Part shown: piece by piece, positions 4,506 through 59,738 of the stretch | Layout: each line of letters opens with the position of its first letter | How positions within the stretch are numbered: the first letter of the stretch is position 1 | DNA from: Patescibacteria group bacterium | GTDB lineage: Bacteria; Patescibacteriota; UBA1384; XYA2-FULL-43-10 | DNA: 64,000 bases | Assembly (NCBI GenBank): GCA_041674405.1 | Contig: JBAYVT010000001.1 | Span: forward strand, 181,032 to 245,031 | Reading direction: 5' to 3' | The notes under the pieces: generated by a model | Database searches by the model: none | Seen by the model: the letters and a program-made list of their open reading frames with translations, nothing else | Told to the model about the DNA's origin: nothing | Made by a program: the position numbers and the translations under genes

Positions 4506-4871
4506 TTATGCTGCCTCCGGCATTTGATCTTGCGATTCTAGAAATCTTAAATCATCTTCATCTGCGGCCGTGTCTTGACCCAGTGAACGCTCATTTTCAA
4601 TCTTTCTTTGAAGAAAATGCTCGATTTCCCGCCGATCTTTGCCTTCTCGGAGAATTTTAATCATATTCTCCAGCGTTTGGATCTCGCTCTCGTTGATATG
4701 ATACAGGCCGCCCTGTTCTCCATGAAGGGCTCGATCAACTTGCTGTTCACGATCGATTCTTCCCTTTACCCGTTCAATTTCGCTCTCGAGATCCGAGATT
4801 AGCCGGTTACAGATCGACCGCTCCCGATCCACAGTTTCTTCTTCTGGAGCGGCTTCTGTTTCAATCGCCAT
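4506..4871 (-). CDS. hypothetical acidic coiled-coil protein (122 aa)
   Basis: Internal ATG at 4871 is preceded by the strong RBS AAGGAGGG. The longer ORF start would overlap the obg 3' end. Confidence 0.55.
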   Translation of the reverse strand: MAIETEAAPEEETVDRERSICNRLISDLESEIERVKGRIDREQQVDRALHGEQGGLYHINESEIQTLENMIKILREGKDRREIEHFLQRKIENERSLGQDTAADEDDLRFLESQDQMPEAA

Positions 4872-4887: not shown

Positions 4888-6291
4888 TTATAATTTGTCA
4901 ATTTTAGAACTGATTGAAGCAAAATAATCTTTGATATTTTGATAATTTAAGTTTTCTTTGACCTCATTCAGCAACACCCAAACAGGAATTTCGTCGGTTT
5001 CTTTTTCTCCAAGATCCACTTTCTCTGATCTAAAAAGAAACATTTTACAGGTGATTCCTTTCGGGTTCATTTTATTTACATACTCGAAATCGGGCAGATC
5101 AGTTCCATCAGACACTACAACCCCGGTTTCTTCAAATATCTCTCTGATAGCCGCTTTCTTTTCATCTTCTCCAGGCTCTAAGTGGCCTTTTGGAAATGAA
5201 AACTCATTGTTGTGACGCGGCCGCTGGATCATCAGAACATATTTTTTGCCTTGGCGCTCCAACACAACTATTCCGCCTGATTTTAGAGTGTGCCCTGCTG
5301 GATTTTTTACTTTATTTGGATGATTCAGCTCCGAAAGAATAACTTTTATTAATTCTTCTATACCTTTATTAGCTGCGGCAGAAATCGGAATAGCAACCAC
5401 GCTAATTTCTTCAAATTGCCCGATTTTTGACTTGATGTTTTCTGAAGATTCAACATCGGTTTTATTTAATACAACAATTTCATTTTTGCTGCTTAAGTTT
5501 TTTGAAAATTCCTCAAGCTCCTTGCGAATTGTTTTGTAATCACGAATCACATCGTCACTCATCGAATCAATCACATGCACAAGCAAATTGGTGCGCTCGA
5601 TATGTTTTAGGAATCGATCGCCAAGCCCACGTCCAGCCGATGCTCCTTCAATCAAGCCAGGGATGTCGGCGACAATAACATTGCGATCTATACCCTTAAT
5701 AACCCCTAGATTCGGCGTAAGCGTAGTAAAGGGATAGTCGGCAACTTTCGGCCTAGCATTGGAAATAACCGATAAGAGAGTTGACTTACCAGCATTTGGA
5801 AGGCCGATGAGCCCTACATCTGCGATCATTTTAAGTTCCAGGTTTAAACGTTTTGATTCTCCGAATAAGCCCTTTTTTGACCATTTTGGAGCTTGTTTGA
5901 TCGAGGTGGCAAAATGTACATTTCCCCAGCCGCCTTGCCCCCCACTTACTGCGACGTATGAACCGGCATCACCCGCTAGATCAGCTACCAATTTATCATC
6001 TTCAAATATTTGTGTGCCTAGGGGCACATTCAATTTAAGATCATCGCCGTTTTTGCCGTGCATTTTTTTACCCATTCCATTTTGGCCATTTTCCGCACTG
6101 AATTTTCTGATGCGGTTAAAATAAGACAGATCCGATGTGTGTGAATCGGCAGAGATGATGACACTGCCACCATTTCCTCCATCTCCCCCATCGGGCCCAC
6201 CTTTTGGAACATATTTTTCATGGCGAAAAGAGGCAGACCCATCTCCGCCATTGCCGGCTTTCACATAAATTTTCGCTTCATCAAAAAACAT
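4888..6291 (-). CDS. obg: GTPase Obg with a C-terminal Nudix hydrolase domain in place of the usual OCT/TGS tail
   Basis: N-terminus MFFDEAKIYVKAGNGGDG (Obg fold), G1 GLPNAGKST and other G-motifs. The last ~130 aa carry a perfect Nudix box GHLEPGEDEKKAAIREIFEETGV. ATG at 6291 preferred over the GTG at 6324. Confidence 0.9.
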   Translation of the reverse strand: MFFDEAKIYVKAGNGGDGSASFRHEKYVPKGGPDGGDGGNGGSVIISADSHTSDLSYFNRIRKFSAENGQNGMGKKMHGKNGDDLKLNVPLGTQIFEDDKLVADLAGDAGSYVAVSGGQGGWGNVHFATSIKQAPKWSKKGLFGESKRLNLELKMIADVGLIGLPNAGKSTLLSVISNARPKVADYPFTTLTPNLGVIKGIDRNVIVADIPGLIEGASAGRGLGDRFLKHIERTNLLVHVIDSMSDDVIRDYKTIRKELEEFSKNLSSKNEIVVLNKTDVESSENIKSKIGQFEEISVVAIPISAAANKGIEELIKVILSELNHPNKVKNPAGHTLKSGGIVVLERQGKKYVLMIQRPRHNNEFSFPKGHLEPGEDEKKAAIREIFEETGVVVSDGTDLPDFEYVNKMNPKGITCKMFLFRSEKVDLGEKETDEIPVWVLLNEVKENLNYQNIKDYFASISSKIDKL

Positions 6292-6297
6292 GACTTT

Positions 6298-6401
6298 CAC
6301 AGAATGGTTATCACAGAATTTCACAGAATTGATTGCAGCATGGATTCATGAGATTCACAGAAATGATATTTTTCTGTGTCTTTCTGTGTGATTTTTCTGT
6401 G
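6298..6401. repeat. array of seven CACAGAA heptamers (four direct, then three inverted as TTCTGTG) in the obg upstream region
   Basis: Copies read from the sequence at 6298, 6312, 6322, 6356 (forward) and 6372, 6382, 6395 (reverse). Confidence 0.6.
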
Positions 6402-6437
6402 CAGTAATTTCCTATTATTATATTCTATAATAACACA

Positions 6438-6464
6438 AAATCCCTCATGAAGCTAGGGATTTTT
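6438..6464 (-). terminator. hairpin AAATCCCT-catgaagct-AGGGATTTT downstream of the LysM/CHAP gene
   Basis: Inverted repeat flanked by A and T runs, so it could act in either direction. Confidence 0.45.
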
Positions 6465-31832: not shown

Positions 31833-34800
31833 CTATGGATTTGTAACTGTGATAGGAGTAGTTGCAGAAGCAGTCACCCCAGCACTATCTTGGACTGTCA
31901 CTTTGGCAGTATAGGTGCCGGCTGCAGTATATGTACAGACCCCGGATAGGGTTGGAGTGTCCTTAAGCACTCTGACTGGAGTAGTGTTGCCAATCTTACA
32001 GTAGTAGGAGTAGGTCTTAGTGCCTGTGGCGCCACCGGTGACATTTGAGGTAAGGGCAACTGTTTGAGTATTGTTTACAATCAAAGAGCTGGGAGTTGCA
32101 TTGAGCGTTACGGCGAGAGATGCGGGAGGAGCAGCTGCTTGCGTTGTACAACGTATTGTCGTCGTCGCCATTCTACCTGTAAGAATGTTGATTCCTGTTG
32201 GACGAGAGTTGACACACAATTTTCCAGTACCTCGCTGCCGAATTGAACTAATTAACTGGCTACCAGATGGGATATTTCGAATTATGAAGTAGCCTTGACC
32301 GTTTGTGATTGCGGCTTTCGGACCAATTTGGATGACGTAATTGGCGAGAATTGTTGAATCACTGGCGCTACGCAGCGTCCCCTGGACCGATCCTAAATTT
32401 GTGATGTGTAGGGCTGCTAAAGCACTATCTGCCCAATTATTTAAGGTTTGAATGGCGGAAACTACGGTCGCCCGTACTGAGCTTATTACGGGAGCTAGAA
32501 TTCTTTGATACTGAATACTTACTTTTTGAGATAACGGCAGTTTGTCGTAAGTACTCTGGATCCAAGAACCATTAGAAATCTGGGCGTAGGTATATGGGAT
32601 GCCGGTGACGCTTCCGCCAACCGATTTGAACACCTGGCCATCATCCGGGTCAACCCTACCGACATTGTCAGCAAACCATTGCCACATATACTTCATAATA
32701 TTTTGGCACGTACCAGTAGTATGGTCTCTAATAATCCCATGAAGCCGTCCGTGCTGCATGAAATAAGCCCAGTAAAAGCTTGCAAAGAATTCATTATCAT
32801 TGTCCCACGGGTGTCCTCCTGTATCCCCAGGCATCAGCTCAACATTCGAATCCGTTATCGCTCCCATCACACAACCTTTATCCGGTCCAGCCATAACCCG
32901 GTTGTAAAGATCGTTCCATGGTGCATATATACTTGGAGTTGAATTCCTAATTTTCTCATTAACAGCGTGGCCGTACTCATGGGCGATGGTAGCGCCAACA
33001 TCAGCACCGGTCGGGTCTGAAGCCAGTGAAAAGTCTAAAAGCTCGGTAGAAAAAATGATCGGCTTCACGTCTTTGCCAATTTTAGCGCAATTCCACATGC
33101 CGTTCCACTGGTATCCTTCAATTTTTCCCATTGGCAGGAAGCCAATCACAACAGGGCGGACATCCTTAGATTGTGACTTTAACCTACGGAGTGATTGTGC
33201 CGCTTCATCGAAAATTGAGCTATGCTGCCCATATATAGTCTTGGGCTTGAATATCATATAAATACCATCGCCGTAATCTTTTAATAAACTGTTGTCATCA
33301 GGGCTGCAAAGGTCTTCGACATCACCGAGACGAGTCCAGTTATCATAGCCTGGAGTAAATTCTACCGGCGGGGACTTGGCGTTGTGCTTATTTATTCCCA
33401 CGCGGTATGTGCCAGCGCTTGTCGGAACAAATTTGGCTGTTTCTTCTCCAAAATCATTGACGGCCAGAAAAGCCTTGTCGGCTGTCTTTGACCACGATCC
33501 GTCGGCAGTTTTCTTTTCCAGATAAAGGTCAGTATAATCGCAATCCTTGAAGTAGTCGTAGTTATAGACATATATTCCCGCCTGAGCTTCCAGGGCGGGG
33601 GCCTTTTGAAGAGTTAGGACGATGACCTTTGGTTGTTGTGTTTCGACGTCTTTTTCGACCACGGCGGTTGTATGTAGGAGTTTATATCCCTGTTTCAACA
33701 CCATGAGATCCAGCGGCTGTCCCTCGGCAAACCCTTGAGGCACAATCCCGGCAGGGGGAGAAATTGGCGTCCTGTTGGGCTGCAAATAGCTCGAATAACT
33801 CTCGTAAAGGCTAAAATCGTTTTTTAATTTTAAATCGAGACCAGAAGACGATGTTCCAATGTAAGCGGCATCTGTGAATCCGAGATTGGAAAAATAGTAG
33901 TTGTTAAGCTTATTTACCACAGTGGCCCCCGCAATTCTTTTACCACTCTCGTCAATAACTTTAATCGGTACGGGCGAAAACTCAGATTGGCCGGTGTCTA
34001 ATAGCATCAATAGATTCCTGGCGGCAAAATCTTTCTGTTGATCGAGGGTCAGCGAAAAATAATTTTGCGGTATTGTGAAACTTTGGGTTTTGGAAGCGCC
34101 ATTTTTTGTTGCTTTGGCAGTATAGGTTTTCCCTAATTCAAACGAAAAATTTGCCTTCCCTAACCAGTCGGTAATTTTTGTTTGAACGACACCTTGGCCG
34201 TTTAGCGTAACTTCGGCGTCACCGATGGCTTTAAGTGTTTTGGAGTCAGCCACCATAATCGAGGCCGGTAGACCTGATGTTATATATTTTTGCAAAGAAA
34301 GTGTAATAGAAATCTTGCCCGTAAGTCCTACATCAAGCGTGATACGGCTTGAAGAGTTTTGCAGATATCCAGTTTTGAAGGCATCAACAGTCAGGACACC
34401 GGTGACATTTGTAAAGGATGCATACCCAGAAGTGTCAGTATTTTTCGATATAGGATTTTCGTCAGAAATATTCCTTCGCACATTAACCTGAGCAGCGACG
34501 ATTGGTTTACTATCTTGATCCAAAACCTGAACTTTTATTTCGCGATCAAGTGTCTGCGCCCTTTGCAAATTTACAATAGTTTCGTCTCCTCGCGTGTTGG
34601 GATAGCCAATAAAATCGTAGTAACCCACCTTTGTGACCTTGATCATCGGTACTGGAGCACATCCGTGAAACTTCCACGCCAAATAATCGAAAATATCCTG
34701 GCTGTAAAAGTACGCTTTTCCCTGGGGATCCGTTATCTTGGAGGGCACATTCAGGTAGCTACATCCACGATCAAAGACGGTCACTTGAGCGCCGAGCACG

Positions 34801-36581
34801 GGGGAGGTTGGGTAAGTTCCGTCTTTCACTGCCACCTTGATGCCAAGATAATATATATCAAGCGATAGATCAGGAAGAGTGATTACGCCGTTTATAATCT
34901 CCGACTTCCTGAAGATTCTAATAGAGTCAGTATTATTTAGAAATTTCAAATATCCCGGAATCGTATAGGTTACTTTGTAGCTATCGGAGCTAATGGGAAT
35001 ATCTGCAATCTTGTAATTCGCGCCGTTGTTTGCATCAATCGAAGCCGCTTGAGATGTTGTGTTAAAGTGCTTATCGGTGCCAGAAAGCTGGATATCAACT
35101 CCAATTCCGCTAATTAATTCTCCAGTACCTTTCATCACAACTCTGCCTTGTGCCTTAAAGGTATTGGGCTCTGTTGCGGCGGGATCCGCTACGACTTGAG
35201 CGACTGCGGTCGCTCCGAGAACATCCCTCTCAATAATAACTTTGGGCTTAAACGTACCGCTGTCCGTATAGGTATGGCTGACCGTTTTGGTCAAATCCGT
35301 GACATTATCAAATTTAACCCCATATCTAGAATCAGCCGGATCACCGCAAACAGTAATAATACTGCTGATAAAATTGCCCTGATTGTCACAATTCCACCAA
35401 AAAGTATAGTTCAAAGTCCCTGTAGCGGTCCCGGAAGCGGTTGCGGTCAATGTATCAGACAAAGGCGCCGTTCCTGAAGTTGGGGTGGCAGTCAATGTAG
35501 CATTGAGTGTGGGGGTTGTTGGATTTGGTGTTGGATCCGAGACCGTAACATTTACCGAACCAGAACCAGAACCGGCGGAGCTCGTGCAAGTCAGAGAATA
35601 TATTGTGGTAGCCAAGGGAGAGATATTTGCACTGCCACTCAATGTATTATTCCACCACCCGCTTGGCGATGCGGTACATAGACTGAGTGTTGCATTTGTT
35701 ATTGTCCAAGTTAGTGATGTAGTTGTGCCCCTCTGCATCGTTACGGCGCTGGCACCGCCCGCTGTCTTAAGATTTACAATTGGCTTCGGAGAAGCCGTGC
35801 TTGCCATTATGAAATTTGCTTCCGAAGTAGCCCCGGAAGAAATAGTAACGGAACGGCTGGTGGGCTGAGAATTATATCCGGCCTTGTAGGCAGTCACAGT
35901 GTAATTACCGACAGGAATGTCTGAAATAGAATAATTGTAGAGCGTAGTACCGGAAGTAGTTGCAGTTTTGACGACAGTGGTTTGCAAGATATTTACCACA
36001 TCGTTGGATCCCAGAACATTAATAGTTACACCATCCAGATTCTTTTGAACACCATCGACGTAAGATGTTACTTGCCCATGCAATATTCCCATATTTGCGG
36101 AACAGGTAGCTGGGTCGACTTTTCCAACTTTAATAGTTGCGCTATTTCCGTATGTTCCCGGATCGTGCGTGCCCCAGGTGCCTTCCGGCGGTGGGCTATT
36201 ATTCCATGCGCCGCTTTCATAGCCTAAAAAACCATAATTGGTCACTGACCAAACTCTCTGTCCTGACCAAGGATAATCGATAAGATTGATAGTGTGATTA
36301 CTGTCCATTCGGTAATATACCCCCGGATTTCCTTCCGAGGTGTCGTTCGTCCCCGTATATGTATAATACCCGTTAAATTCCGCTCTGCCGGCATTACATA
36401 CTGTATATGTTTGTGGCCAAGCAGCTATTGTATCGGCCTTGATATGAAGAACATTAGCTAGCTTAGGAAAATATCCGAATTTGGCGGCTGCAATGGAGCC
36501 GGAAGCAAGAAGGACAAATACAAAAAGACCGGCGTAAAGTATTAGCTTGCGTTTTGAGATTTGTTTCAGGCGTTCGAACAT
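31833..36581 (-). CDS. giant secreted multi-domain surface protein with a central HExxH zinc-metalloprotease motif and repeated Ig/CARDB-like beta domains
   Basis: N-terminal signal-anchor. IAHEYGHAVNE motif. Long Thr/Ser-rich beta-repeat stretches at both ends. 1582 aa. Confidence 0.8.
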   Translation of the reverse strand: MFERLKQISKRKLILYAGLFVFVLLASGSIAAAKFGYFPKLANVLHIKADTIAAWPQTYTVCNAGRAEFNGYYTYTGTNDTSEGNPGVYYRMDSNHTINLIDYPWSGQRVWSVTNYGFLGYESGAWNNSPPPEGTWGTHDPGTYGNSATIKVGKVDPATCSANMGILHGQVTSYVDGVQKNLDGVTINVLGSNDVVNILQTTVVKTATTSGTTLYNYSISDIPVGNYTVTAYKAGYNSQPTSRSVTISSGATSEANFIMASTASPKPIVNLKTAGGASAVTMQRGTTTSLTWTITNATLSLCTASPSGWWNNTLSGSANISPLATTIYSLTCTSSAGSGSGSVNVTVSDPTPNPTTPTLNATLTATPTSGTAPLSDTLTATASGTATGTLNYTFWWNCDNQGNFISSIITVCGDPADSRYGVKFDNVTDLTKTVSHTYTDSGTFKPKVIIERDVLGATAVAQVVADPAATEPNTFKAQGRVVMKGTGELISGIGVDIQLSGTDKHFNTTSQAASIDANNGANYKIADIPISSDSYKVTYTIPGYLKFLNNTDSIRIFRKSEIINGVITLPDLSLDIYYLGIKVAVKDGTYPTSPVLGAQVTVFDRGCSYLNVPSKITDPQGKAYFYSQDIFDYLAWKFHGCAPVPMIKVTKVGYYDFIGYPNTRGDETIVNLQRAQTLDREIKVQVLDQDSKPIVAAQVNVRRNISDENPISKNTDTSGYASFTNVTGVLTVDAFKTGYLQNSSSRITLDVGLTGKISITLSLQKYITSGLPASIMVADSKTLKAIGDAEVTLNGQGVVQTKITDWLGKANFSFELGKTYTAKATKNGASKTQSFTIPQNYFSLTLDQQKDFAARNLLMLLDTGQSEFSPVPIKVIDESGKRIAGATVVNKLNNYYFSNLGFTDAAYIGTSSSGLDLKLKNDFSLYESYSSYLQPNRTPISPPAGIVPQGFAEGQPLDLMVLKQGYKLLHTTAVVEKDVETQQPKVIVLTLQKAPALEAQAGIYVYNYDYFKDCDYTDLYLEKKTADGSWSKTADKAFLAVNDFGEETAKFVPTSAGTYRVGINKHNAKSPPVEFTPGYDNWTRLGDVEDLCSPDDNSLLKDYGDGIYMIFKPKTIYGQHSSIFDEAAQSLRRLKSQSKDVRPVVIGFLPMGKIEGYQWNGMWNCAKIGKDVKPIIFSTELLDFSLASDPTGADVGATIAHEYGHAVNEKIRNSTPSIYAPWNDLYNRVMAGPDKGCVMGAITDSNVELMPGDTGGHPWDNDNEFFASFYWAYFMQHGRLHGIIRDHTTGTCQNIMKYMWQWFADNVGRVDPDDGQVFKSVGGSVTGIPYTYAQISNGSWIQSTYDKLPLSQKVSIQYQRILAPVISSVRATVVSAIQTLNNWADSALAALHITNLGSVQGTLRSASDSTILANYVIQIGPKAAITNGQGYFIIRNIPSGSQLISSIRQRGTGKLCVNSRPTGINILTGRMATTTIRCTTQAAAPPASLAVTLNATPSSLIVNNTQTVALTSNVTGGATGTKTYSYYCKIGNTTPVRVLKDTPTLSGVCTYTAAGTYTAKVTVQDSAGVTASATTPITVTNP

Positions 36582-49286: not shown

Positions 49287-49341
49287 CCATATATAACCAC
49301 CCAAAAGAAAAACGACCACCAAAAGGTGATCATTTTTCTTT

Positions 49342-49415
49342 GGTTCGGGGATAGGGATTCGGACCCCAATTCTTTGGACCAAAACCAAATGTCCTGCCAT
49401 TAGACGATCCCCGAA
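49342..49415. repeat. structured non-coding element (second copy): GGTTCGGGGATAGGGATTCGG ... closed by TCCCCGAA
   Basis: Shares the 5' motif with 49170-49191. The ends are complementary. Confidence 0.3.
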
Positions 49416-49584: not shown

Positions 49585-49915
49585 GCTTTATGAAGCATCC
49601 AATAAGCCGGGTTTTGTATAACGATAGCAATCTATCTACGCGTGGAGACCGCAGGTCACCTTCCGAGTCGGAATTGATGTCAGGCGGTCCACTCCACTTG
49701 CACCGAGCTAGGCTTGCCACAGACGCACATTGCTGTACGAACGCGTGAGCTCTTACCTCACGATTTCAACCTTACCGGTCTTGCGACTTAGGCGGTATAT
49801 TTTCTGTTGCGCTGTTCTCAGAGCTTTCACCCTGCTTGTTTTCACAAGCGCTCCACTCTGCGGTGCCCGGACTTTCCTCCCTTGCGGGTAGCTATCTAGA
49901 ATGCTTTTAAAGCAT
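49585..49915 (-). ncRNA. rnpB: RNase P RNA (bacterial type A, compact)
   Basis: On the minus strand: GGAGGAAAGTCCGGGCACC, GGTAAGGTTGAAATCGTGAGGTAAGAGCTCACG and ACAAAACCCGGCTTATTGG. The 5' end GCTTTAAAAGCATTC pairs with the 3' end GGATGCTTCATAAAGC to form P1. Confidence 0.85.
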
Positions 49916-51827: not shown

Positions 51828-53552
51828 TTACTCCTTGACTTCTTTAATAACCGCAGATAAATCTTCTTGCCCTTTGTCGCCTTCGCCATATTTACGGACA
51901 GCGACTTTTTCAGCCTCGATTTCTTTGTCGCCGACAATAAGCATATATGGGATTTTTTGCATCTCGGCTTCGCGAATTTTTTTGCCGATCGATTCAGTAC
52001 GATCATCAACCTTAACTCGAATTCCGGCTTCATTGAGCTCCTTTTCGATTTTTGCGGCGTAGTCCAAATGTTTATCGGAGATTGGCAACACAATAGCCTG
52101 GACAGGAGCGAGCCATGTCGGAAATGCGCCGGCAACATTCTCGATATATATACCAAGAAAACGCTCGATTGCCCCATAAATCACGCGATGGATCATTACA
52201 GGACGGACTTTTTCACCTTTTTCATCAATATAGGTCAAGTCGAATGTTTCCGGATTGGCAAAGTCAAGCTGTATTGTGCCGCACTGCCATGTGCGACCGA
52301 TAGCATCCTTTAGATGAAAATCAAATTTCGGGCCATAGAATGCTCCATCACCTTCATTAACTTTATGTTCGATTTTGTTTTCAGCAAGAATTTCCTTCAT
52401 TGTCGATTCTGCCTTTTCCCAAACCTCATCCGAACCGACTGACTTTTCCGGCCTTGTTGAAAGCTCAATATGATCAACTTTCATGCCAAATTTCTCATAC
52501 ATTTCAAAACATAAATCAAATACCTTTTTGATTTCTTCCTTTACCTGATCAGGCCGGCAATAGATGTGGGCATCATCTTGTGTAAACTGGCGAAGGCGCA
52601 TAAGCCCATGGACTTCGCCCGAACCTTCGTAGCGGTGGACCAAGCCAATCTCCCCCATCTTTACCGGCAGATCTCGGTATGAATGAACCTTAGTCCTGTA
52701 AATCAGCATACCGCCGATGCAGTTCATTGGCTTTACAGCATAGGAATAATCTTTTTCATCGGGAGTTCTGGCTAAATACATTCTTTCGGCATAGTTTTTC
52801 ATGTGTCCGCTCTGCTCCCAGACTTCTTTTAGCATCATGATTGGGGTATTTACCTCTTCGTATCTCTCACGGCGATGAACCTGCCGCCAATACTCGAGCA
52901 TTTTTTGAAATACAATCCAGCCATTATCATGCCAAAAAACAAAGTTTGGTCCTTCCTTGTGAAACGAAAAGAGATCCAGCTCCGTGGCAAGTTTGCGGTG
53001 ATCGCGCTTCTCAGCTTCCAGTATGATTTCTTCATACTTTTTAAGCTCAGACTCGTTTTCAAACGCAAGAGCATATATCCTCTGTAGCATTTTGTTTTTC
53101 TCACTACCTCGCCAATAAGCACCGGCAATTTTATCAAGCTTAAAACCAACATTTTTGAGATCAGAGGTTGTATCAACGTGAGGACCAGCACAAAGATCGA
53201 CAAATTCTCCTGTTTTGTAAAGTGAAACTTTGTCATTGCCACTACTCTTCAAATCTTTAATCAACTCCAATTTGTAATTTTGTTTGTCAAATTTTTCAAT
53301 TGCTTGGCTTATTTCCACTTCTGATTTTTCAAAGGCAAGATTCTTTTCAATAATCTCGCGCATTTTTTTCTCAAGTTTTGGCAAATCCTCCGGCACCAAA
53401 GCTCGGGGCAAGTCAAAATCATAATAAAAGCCATTTTCAATCGCCGGACCAATACCAAGTTTTGCATCAGGGAACATCTCAAGTACTGCCATCGCCAGTA
53501 CATGGCTCAGCGAATGCCTCATGGTTTCAAGTTCAAATTTTTTTTCAGCCAT
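51828..53552 (-). CDS. thrS: threonyl-tRNA synthetase (lacks the N-terminal TGS domain)
   Basis: Class II aaRS motifs, N2 editing-domain remnants (HSLSHVLA) and a C-terminal anticodon-binding domain. 574 aa. Confidence 0.95.
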   Translation of the reverse strand: MAEKKFELETMRHSLSHVLAMAVLEMFPDAKLGIGPAIENGFYYDFDLPRALVPEDLPKLEKKMREIIEKNLAFEKSEVEISQAIEKFDKQNYKLELIKDLKSSGNDKVSLYKTGEFVDLCAGPHVDTTSDLKNVGFKLDKIAGAYWRGSEKNKMLQRIYALAFENESELKKYEEIILEAEKRDHRKLATELDLFSFHKEGPNFVFWHDNGWIVFQKMLEYWRQVHRRERYEEVNTPIMMLKEVWEQSGHMKNYAERMYLARTPDEKDYSYAVKPMNCIGGMLIYRTKVHSYRDLPVKMGEIGLVHRYEGSGEVHGLMRLRQFTQDDAHIYCRPDQVKEEIKKVFDLCFEMYEKFGMKVDHIELSTRPEKSVGSDEVWEKAESTMKEILAENKIEHKVNEGDGAFYGPKFDFHLKDAIGRTWQCGTIQLDFANPETFDLTYIDEKGEKVRPVMIHRVIYGAIERFLGIYIENVAGAFPTWLAPVQAIVLPISDKHLDYAAKIEKELNEAGIRVKVDDRTESIGKKIREAEMQKIPYMLIVGDKEIEAEKVAVRKYGEGDKGQEDLSAVIKEVKE

Positions 53553-59661: not shown

Positions 59662-59738
59662 GGGCCCGTAGCTCAGTTGGTTAGAGCGCATCGTTGACAT
59701 CGATGAGGTCTGCAGTTCGAGTCTGCACGGGCCCACCA
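59662..59738 (+). tRNA. tRNA-Val (anticodon GAC), CCA encoded
   Basis: Manual cloverleaf: acceptor GGGCCCG/CGGGCCC, D-arm GCUC/GAGC, anticodon stem CAUCG/CGAUG with loop UUGACAU, T-arm UGCAG-UUCGAGU-CUGCA. Confidence 0.9.

Follow-up and report, generated by a model that had tools for sequence, protein, structure and literature searches.

The analyzed sequence, hereafter the window, was a 64,000-nucleotide stretch from a Patescibacteria group bacterium (assembly GCA_041674405.1, contig JBAYVT010000001.1, positions 181,032 to 245,031), and the element under study is a single minus-strand open reading frame (ORF) in which an Obg GTPase continues into a C-terminal Nudix hydrolase domain (Table 1). 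The frame ran uninterrupted for 467 codons, from an ATG at 6291 to a TAA at 4888-4890; a longer alternative start (GTG at 6324) was also present, and ATG 6291 is the likely start because homologues all begin with MFIDEAK. Profile searches assigned residues 3-155 to Pfam GTP1_OBG (E 8.6e-54, over the full 155-position profile) and residues 158-277 to MMR_HSR1 (E 9.7e-28), and the five G motifs were all intact: G1 GLPNAGKS (163), G2 YPFTT (186), G3 DIPG (209), G4 NKTD (276) and G5 SAA (304). Three Obg equivalog models scored above their cutoffs (TIGR02729, 424 bits vs. 280; NF008956, 426 bits vs. 300; and NF008955), with alignments confined to residues 1-331. The remainder of the protein matched Pfam NUDIX (residues 340-447, E 1e-16, 61.6 bits vs. 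a gathering cutoff of 21.1), and its Nudix box, GHLEPGEDEKKAAIREIFEETGV, was an exact match to the consensus GX5EX7REUXEEXGU. The description given in the initial annotation, of an Obg fold and G domain followed by a complete C-terminal Nudix domain with a textbook box, was thus borne out by the profile scan. From its family membership, the Obg part would be expected to bind GTP, GDP and ppGpp and to associate with the 50S subunit.

The same annotation had placed the Nudix domain "instead of" the usual OCT/TGS domain, a wording that proved misleading. No Pfam match to the OCT domain (PF09269) was obtained in the 467-aa protein, and at least 110 of its nearest relatives were short Obg proteins (about 322 aa) whose two domains are followed by no C-terminal extension; among the matches listed, only one relative (P0009) carried an OCT domain. 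The named sources of these relatives were Patescibacteria group bacterium, Candidatus Berkelbacteria or plain "bacterium". Since close relatives have neither OCT nor TGS, the Nudix domain was added to a short Obg and took the place of no OCT/TGS domain. The gene order IF2-CdaA-YbbR-LysM/CHAP-Obg was kept in fused and unfused genomes alike, which marks the fused gene as the housekeeping copy of obg rather than a paralogue. Among the unfused relatives, those nearest to the window protein were P0008 and P0013 (69-71% identical over the Obg part), encoded at loci with a small acidic ORF downstream and a convergent DnaJ gene, as in the window, but without a Nudix gene. The protein shares its Obg fold, G domain, G motifs and housekeeping synteny with the short two-domain form of the Obg/CgtA family (TIGR02729) found in Patescibacteria and in the truncated chlamydial YhbZ, and differs from it by the extra C-terminal Nudix domain, of an apparently catalytic type. 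The three-domain Obg of the Bacillus type has the OCT domain that the window protein lacks, while E. coli ObgE has an acidic tail, also missing here.

The fusion is genuine; it is conserved and very rare. An identical protein (P0001) was found in the public collection, from both the Joint Genome Institute (JGI) and the European Nucleotide Archive (ENA), the same ORF was recovered in a Logan assembly of sequencing reads (P0283), and a fragment on a short JGI contig (P0282) spanned the junction. Six more clusters at 90% identity (P0002-P0007), from other samples, had the same three-domain architecture, were about 64% identical overall (50-57% in the Nudix part) and crossed the junction without gaps (ILSE[LQ]NHPNKVKN). 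The catalytic REx2EE residues of the Nudix box were invariant in all seven fused proteins. Between the orthologues of loci L001 and L005, the ratio of nonsynonymous to synonymous substitution rates was 0.067 over the Obg portion; over the Nudix portion it was 0.13, a value indicating that the added domain is under purifying selection. In the window, the GC content at third codon positions hardly differed between the halves of the fused gene (0.370 vs. 0.375). In total, the fused set comprised seven sequence clusters from uncultured organisms, with a patchy distribution within a small clade of Patescibacteria, in the Candidate Phyla Radiation (CPR). No publication describing such a protein emerged from literature searches on Obg-Nudix fusions or architectures.

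A junction-spanning query (residues 256-467) was compared with 1.84 billion representative proteins, and the 150 best matches were inspected. Among these, P0004, representing one cluster at 50% identity, was the sole protein aligning through the junction. The rest of the top matches comprised free-standing Nudix proteins, some 140 aa long, and Nudix domains of the same family joined to other, unrelated proteins (signal peptidase II, a GT4 glycosyltransferase, a histidine phosphatase or a tandem Nudix); none carried an Obg domain, which was equally missing from the long Nudix proteins P0244, P0267, P0247, P0213 and similar ones. Scanning metagenomes with the Nudix alignment returned mostly generic FPKGH patterns; the matches listed included no further fused loci, and relatives reached at most 47% identity. 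The matches listed from a scan of genome representatives likewise included no fused member; they did include a 42%-identical stand-alone Nudix from candidate division CPR2.

The closest stand-alone Nudix protein was P0132 (152 aa, 46-50% identical to the fused domain), whose N-terminus carries the motif KVKN..G.T.K.GG that forms the linker in the fused proteins. Its gene, nudixA, lies 340 bp downstream of obg, within the corresponding syntenic locus in a sister genome (L088; GCA_964398545.1). The order there is Obg (323 aa), an 82-aa ORF, NudixA, a YfbR-like HD phosphohydrolase and NudixB; DnaJ lies beyond them on the opposite strand. In another sister lineage, covered by two independent assemblies (L172 and L173), a NudixB-type gene begins 4 bp before the obg stop codon, with an ATGA overlap; this NudixB is a paralogue, and not the closest homologue, of the fused domain. 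The NudixB family comprised four clusters, all stand-alone, and no Obg-NudixB fusion was found. Outside the clade, none of 160 Nudix loci from other phyla showed obg-nudix adjacency, and a single one of them had obg in its vicinity (3.4 kb off, on the opposite strand). The split arrangements of L088 and L172 involve the same locus and gene families as the fusion but keep the genes separate, L088 having in addition the gene of HD 5'-nucleotidase type. In that genome, the YfbR-like HD 5'-deoxynucleotidase and NudixB genes occupy positions 5435-6447 after nudixA, each overlapping its upstream neighbour and together making up a small nucleotide-hydrolase cluster beside obg; NudixB is a second, divergent Nudix protein (type B) with non-canonical box spacing.

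Because Nudix genes adjoin obg at the same syntenic locus in sister lineages, an origin in place, by joining of obg to a neighbouring Nudix gene, is the most likely one for the fusion. Unfused Obg proteins end in ...IL, while the fused ones run on as ...ILSE[LQ]-NHPNKVKN..., which is the product expected if a nudix gene followed closely and the stop codon before it was lost. Under such a scenario, loss of the obg stop codon would have allowed read-through into the nudix gene, adding a Nudix pyrophosphohydrolase of roughly 140 aa, and the linker, some 15 residues long, would largely correspond to the former N-terminus of the Nudix protein. As the junction is identical across the fused proteins, a single fusion event is suggested.

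Regarding the kind of Nudix enzyme, the best relative of solved structure by sequence was the Ap6A hydrolase Ndx1 of T. thermophilus (1vc8; phmmer, E 2.7e-9), together with the Aquifex (3i7u) and C. elegans Ap4A hydrolases and MutT1. An AlphaFold2 model of residues 325-467 had a mean predicted local distance difference test score (pLDDT) of 87.8 and a predicted template modelling score (pTM) of 0.82. The best Foldseek matches of this model in the PDB (E 1e-10, template modelling score about 0.75) were the C. elegans Ap4A hydrolase, M. smegmatis MutT1, the Aquifex Ap4A hydrolase, the M. tuberculosis diadenosine polyphosphatase Rv2985, the human Ap4A hydrolase NUDT2 and Ndx1. Based on these sequence and fold matches, the domain falls in the neighbourhood of the ApnA hydrolases and MutT1. 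Ndx1 and the window domain have in common the FPKGHxExGE box context and a Y-V-N..NPKG segment; the Ap(n)A hydrolases are free enzymes, however, whereas the window domain forms one protein with a GTPase, is 22-29% identical to them and has no equivalog-level match. No NCBIfam equivalog passed for the Nudix part, the best being MutT1 (NF052459), with 43 bits vs. a cutoff of 475 and over the Nudix half only. Mycobacterial MutT1/Rv2985, a hydrolase of 8-oxo-(d)GTP and diadenosine polyphosphates, is likewise a Nudix of similar type fused to a second catalytic domain, which is a histidine phosphatase in that case and Obg in the window protein. A reading as part of a defence system was dropped, since PADLOC returned a generic Nudix match only.

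The full-length AlphaFold model had a pLDDT of 70.9 and a pTM of 0.46, with linker residues 324-339 below 50 and predicted to be flexible. No confident interface between Obg and Nudix appeared in this model, for which the alignment left out stand-alone Nudix proteins and held seven sequences over the Nudix half.

Upstream of the start codon, the obg leader consists of three or four CACAGAAA repeats followed by four reverse-complement UUCUGUGA copies up to the AUG, with a predicted hairpin of -30.6 kcal/mol (z = -2.3); the sequence TTCACAGAA occurred 5 times in the window vs. 0.7 expected. Among the obg leaders compared (L001, L004, L005, L006, L007, L088, L171 and L172), most had short direct repeats followed by their reverse complements, with a repeat sequence that differed per genome, so that the structure of the leader may be conserved while its sequence diverges. 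These repeats are a possible regulatory hairpin. Directly downstream of obg, the window encodes a highly acidic protein that is conserved in its closest relatives (L006, 3277-3678; L007, 1368-1745), the three copies all ending in -AA. The 82-aa ORF of L088 is acidic and also ends in -AA, with no detectable similarity to the 121-aa protein.

Four Nudix domains were found in the 64-kb window in total. One of them belongs to a complete ORF that starts at the stop codon of thrS in a different frame and has no ATG, GTG or TTG upstream of codon 56; use of a rare start (ATA/ATC), frameshifting from thrS or disruption of the gene may account for it. The remaining features of the window are listed in Table 1; no rRNA genes were found within it.

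Table 1. Features of the 64-kb window, with positions counted from its first nucleotide.
Feature	Position	Strand	Basis or remark
Obg-Nudix ORF, 467 aa + stop	4888..6291	minus	ORF list and sequence; identical protein public
Obg fold, glycine-rich N-terminal domain, residues 3-155	5827..6285	minus	Pfam GTP1_OBG
G domain, residues 158-322, G1-G5 intact	5326..5820	minus	MMR_HSR1, Obg equivalogs, motif positions
P-loop GLPNAGKS	5782..5805	minus	G1 motif
Linker, residues 323-339, LNHPNKVKNPAGHTLKS	5275..5325	minus	Gap-free junction in all seven fused proteins
Nudix hydrolase domain, residues 340-467	4891..5274	minus	Pfam NUDIX, AlphaFold2 model, Foldseek
Nudix box GHLEPGEDEKKAAIREIFEETGV, residues 369-391	5119..5187	minus	Direct sequence reading
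obg leader, CACAGAAA / UUCUGUGA direct and inverted repeats abutting the start codon	6292..6401	minus	
Acidic protein, 121 aa, probably coiled-coil	4506-4871	minus	No Pfam family
ORF of 1582 aa, probably a large surface protein	31833-36581	minus	Sole Pfam match CarboxypepD_reg domain
tRNA-Gln(UUG)	49341-49414	minus	
RNase P RNA, class A	49588-49907	minus	149.7 bits
HD-domain protein, 375 aa	50074-51201	minus	
Nudix ORF starting at the ThrRS stop codon	51400-51828	minus	Pfam E 1.9e-21
thrS	51828..53552		Followed directly by the Nudix ORF of the row above
Stand-alone Nudix, 152 aa	53611-54069	minus	Upstream of thrS
ThyX-like protein, 535 aa	56270-57877	minus	Long N-terminal extension without Pfam match
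tRNA-Val(GAC)	59662-59738	plus	
HTH_3-HSP20 fusion, 290 aa	59791-60663	minus	
4Fe-4S ferredoxin-thioredoxin fusion, 201 aa	62324-62929	plus	
Nudix-HD (DUF4202) fusion, 326 aa	62929-63909	plus	

The best-supported reading of these results, to which we assign a probability of roughly 60%, is that of a bifunctional protein made of two autonomous modules that are co-expressed and co-localised. In such a protein, two catalytic modules would sit on a flexible tether: an Obg module acting, as elsewhere in its family, as a GTPase of 50S assembly that senses guanine nucleotides, and a catalytically competent Nudix module which, judging from its nearest characterised relatives, would cleave a nucleoside-5'-polyphosphate. 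A dinucleoside polyphosphate of the Ap4A/Ap6A type, or else a damaged or signalling guanine nucleotide, would be the likeliest substrate. Coupling between the halves would most probably consist of obligatory 1:1 co-expression and co-localisation, with no allosteric interface. The adjacency of obg and nudix genes in sister lineages counts for some functional link, while other observations count against a specific coupling: the Nudix domain is dispensable, as the closest Obg relatives lack it, and the same Nudix family has been joined promiscuously to unrelated proteins. Moreover, the three other Nudix genes and the additional odd fusions of the window suggest a lineage-wide tendency to fuse neighbouring genes.

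Several observations weigh against this reading or against the origin proposed for the fusion. In a neighbor-joining tree of the Obg part, the fused proteins were not monophyletic: a clade with 99% bootstrap support grouped P0002-7 with the unfused P0010, P0011, P0016, P0017, P0020, P0022, P0037 and P0049, leaving the window protein outside. A single fusion event would therefore also need later loss or fission of the domain, or transfer of the fused gene, and searches by tblastn detected no Nudix remnants downstream of unfused obg genes. Due to the 82-aa ORF between obg and nudixA, the arrangement of L088 is not the immediate precursor of the fusion. The characterised relatives of the Nudix domain, at only 22-29% identity, are too distant for a reliable substrate assignment. 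The missing predicted interface is a weak negative, since the shallow Nudix alignment (seven sequences) is possibly its sole cause. Finally, in one NCBI metagenome-assembled genome ("Patescibacteria group bacterium"), residues 343-467 are annotated as a separate 125-aa NUDIX protein (MFA7243863.1). This annotation also speaks for an assembly or frameshift artefact joining two genes, one of the outcomes that the initial annotation had named as fatal to its claim; that explanation is refuted by the independent assemblies and by the six orthologue clusters with the same gap-free junction, which together with the purifying selection on the Nudix part leave it a negligible chance.

A coupling of nucleotide sensing to alarmone turnover, as first proposed for this protein, is a hypothesis that published work makes plausible, and in its explicit form the Nudix domain would be a cis-acting alarmone hydrolase that cleaves, on Obg or close to it, (p)ppGpp or nucleotides derived from GDP or GTP. 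Conversion of the Obg-inhibiting ppGpp to pGpp or pGp, which would not bind Obg, would then reset ribosome assembly, and the fusion would parallel, in covalent form, the partnership of Obg with SpoT. Such a scheme agrees with the strong binding of ppGpp, and the lack of binding of pGpp, by Obg, and with the hydrolysis of (p)ppGpp by the Nudix enzymes B. subtilis NahA, E. coli NudG and MutT, and T. thermophilus Ndx8 (PMC7584652), with which it shares the concept of a Nudix acting on an Obg-bound nucleotide. It also agrees with the interaction between SpoT and Obg (PMC3153485), in which an alarmone hydrolase is physically linked to Obg; the link in the window protein is covalent and restricted to a few uncultured lineages. 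The fusion together with the repeated obg-nudix adjacency in the clade is evidence of the classic Rosetta-stone kind, and no RelA/SpoT homologue was found among about 40 larger ORFs scanned in the 64-kb window, a result of little weight for the whole genome. We nevertheless regard this explanation, though attractive, as rather unlikely. The nearest characterised relatives of the domain are ApnA hydrolases and MutT1, and beyond the fold no specific similarity to the (p)ppGpp-degrading Nudix enzymes was found; NahA, Ndx8 and NudG were absent from the top PDB and NCBIfam matches, in libraries that hold no models for some of them and with no direct comparison made. The missing confident interface, the dispensability of the domain and the fusions of its family to signal peptidase II, a glycosyltransferase and a histidine phosphatase argue in the same direction, and the scheme presupposes that these organisms make (p)ppGpp. 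That the tethered Nudix serves as a dedicated cis-acting hydrolase for whichever nucleotide switches Obg off, be it (p)ppGpp or a dinucleoside polyphosphate such as Ap4G or Gp4G, seems unlikely, slightly more so than the alarmone scheme itself.

Two further functions for the Nudix half were considered. An RNA 5'-end or cap pyrophosphohydrolase (RppH-like, or decapping Np4A caps), brought by Obg to nascent ribosomes or rRNA precursors, would fit the weak matches to RppH/YtkD models and structures and the binding of Obg to the 50S subunit (PMC7584652). The RppH-type scores were below those of the Ap4A/MutT1 matches and far under the family cutoffs, and the domain has no RNA-binding extension, making this function improbable. 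A non-catalytic, ligand-sensing Nudix that regulates Obg in the manner of NrtR is more improbable still: the NrtR Nudix domain did appear at rank 36 of the fold matches, but the box of the window protein is canonical, with its REx2EE residues unchanged throughout the fused set, and non-catalytic Nudix domains usually have degenerate boxes.

Obg is an essential protein of universal occurrence, yet the debate over what it senses in the cell continues, and its connections with (p)ppGpp and SpoT, although old, have stayed indirect. In this context, the Obg-Nudix fusion and the adjacency of both genes in sister lineages provide a Rosetta-stone hint to a specific partner activity, namely cleavage of a particular nucleoside polyphosphate with a possible effect on the nucleotide state of Obg, with a reach limited to seven clusters from uncultured organisms of patchy spread. 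CPR genomes seem prone to such events, as the window itself also holds Nudix-HD, HTH-HSP20 and ferredoxin-thioredoxin fusions. If the Nudix domain did erase alarmones in cis, these minimal-genome bacteria would have hard-wired an eraser onto the GTPase of a ribosome-assembly checkpoint, and the protein, as a naturally covalent counterpart of the Obg-SpoT pair, would give direct access to what Obg senses in vivo. If, instead, the two halves work independently, the fusion would offer a clean and datable case of domain accretion by stop-codon loss in the reduced genomes of the CPR.

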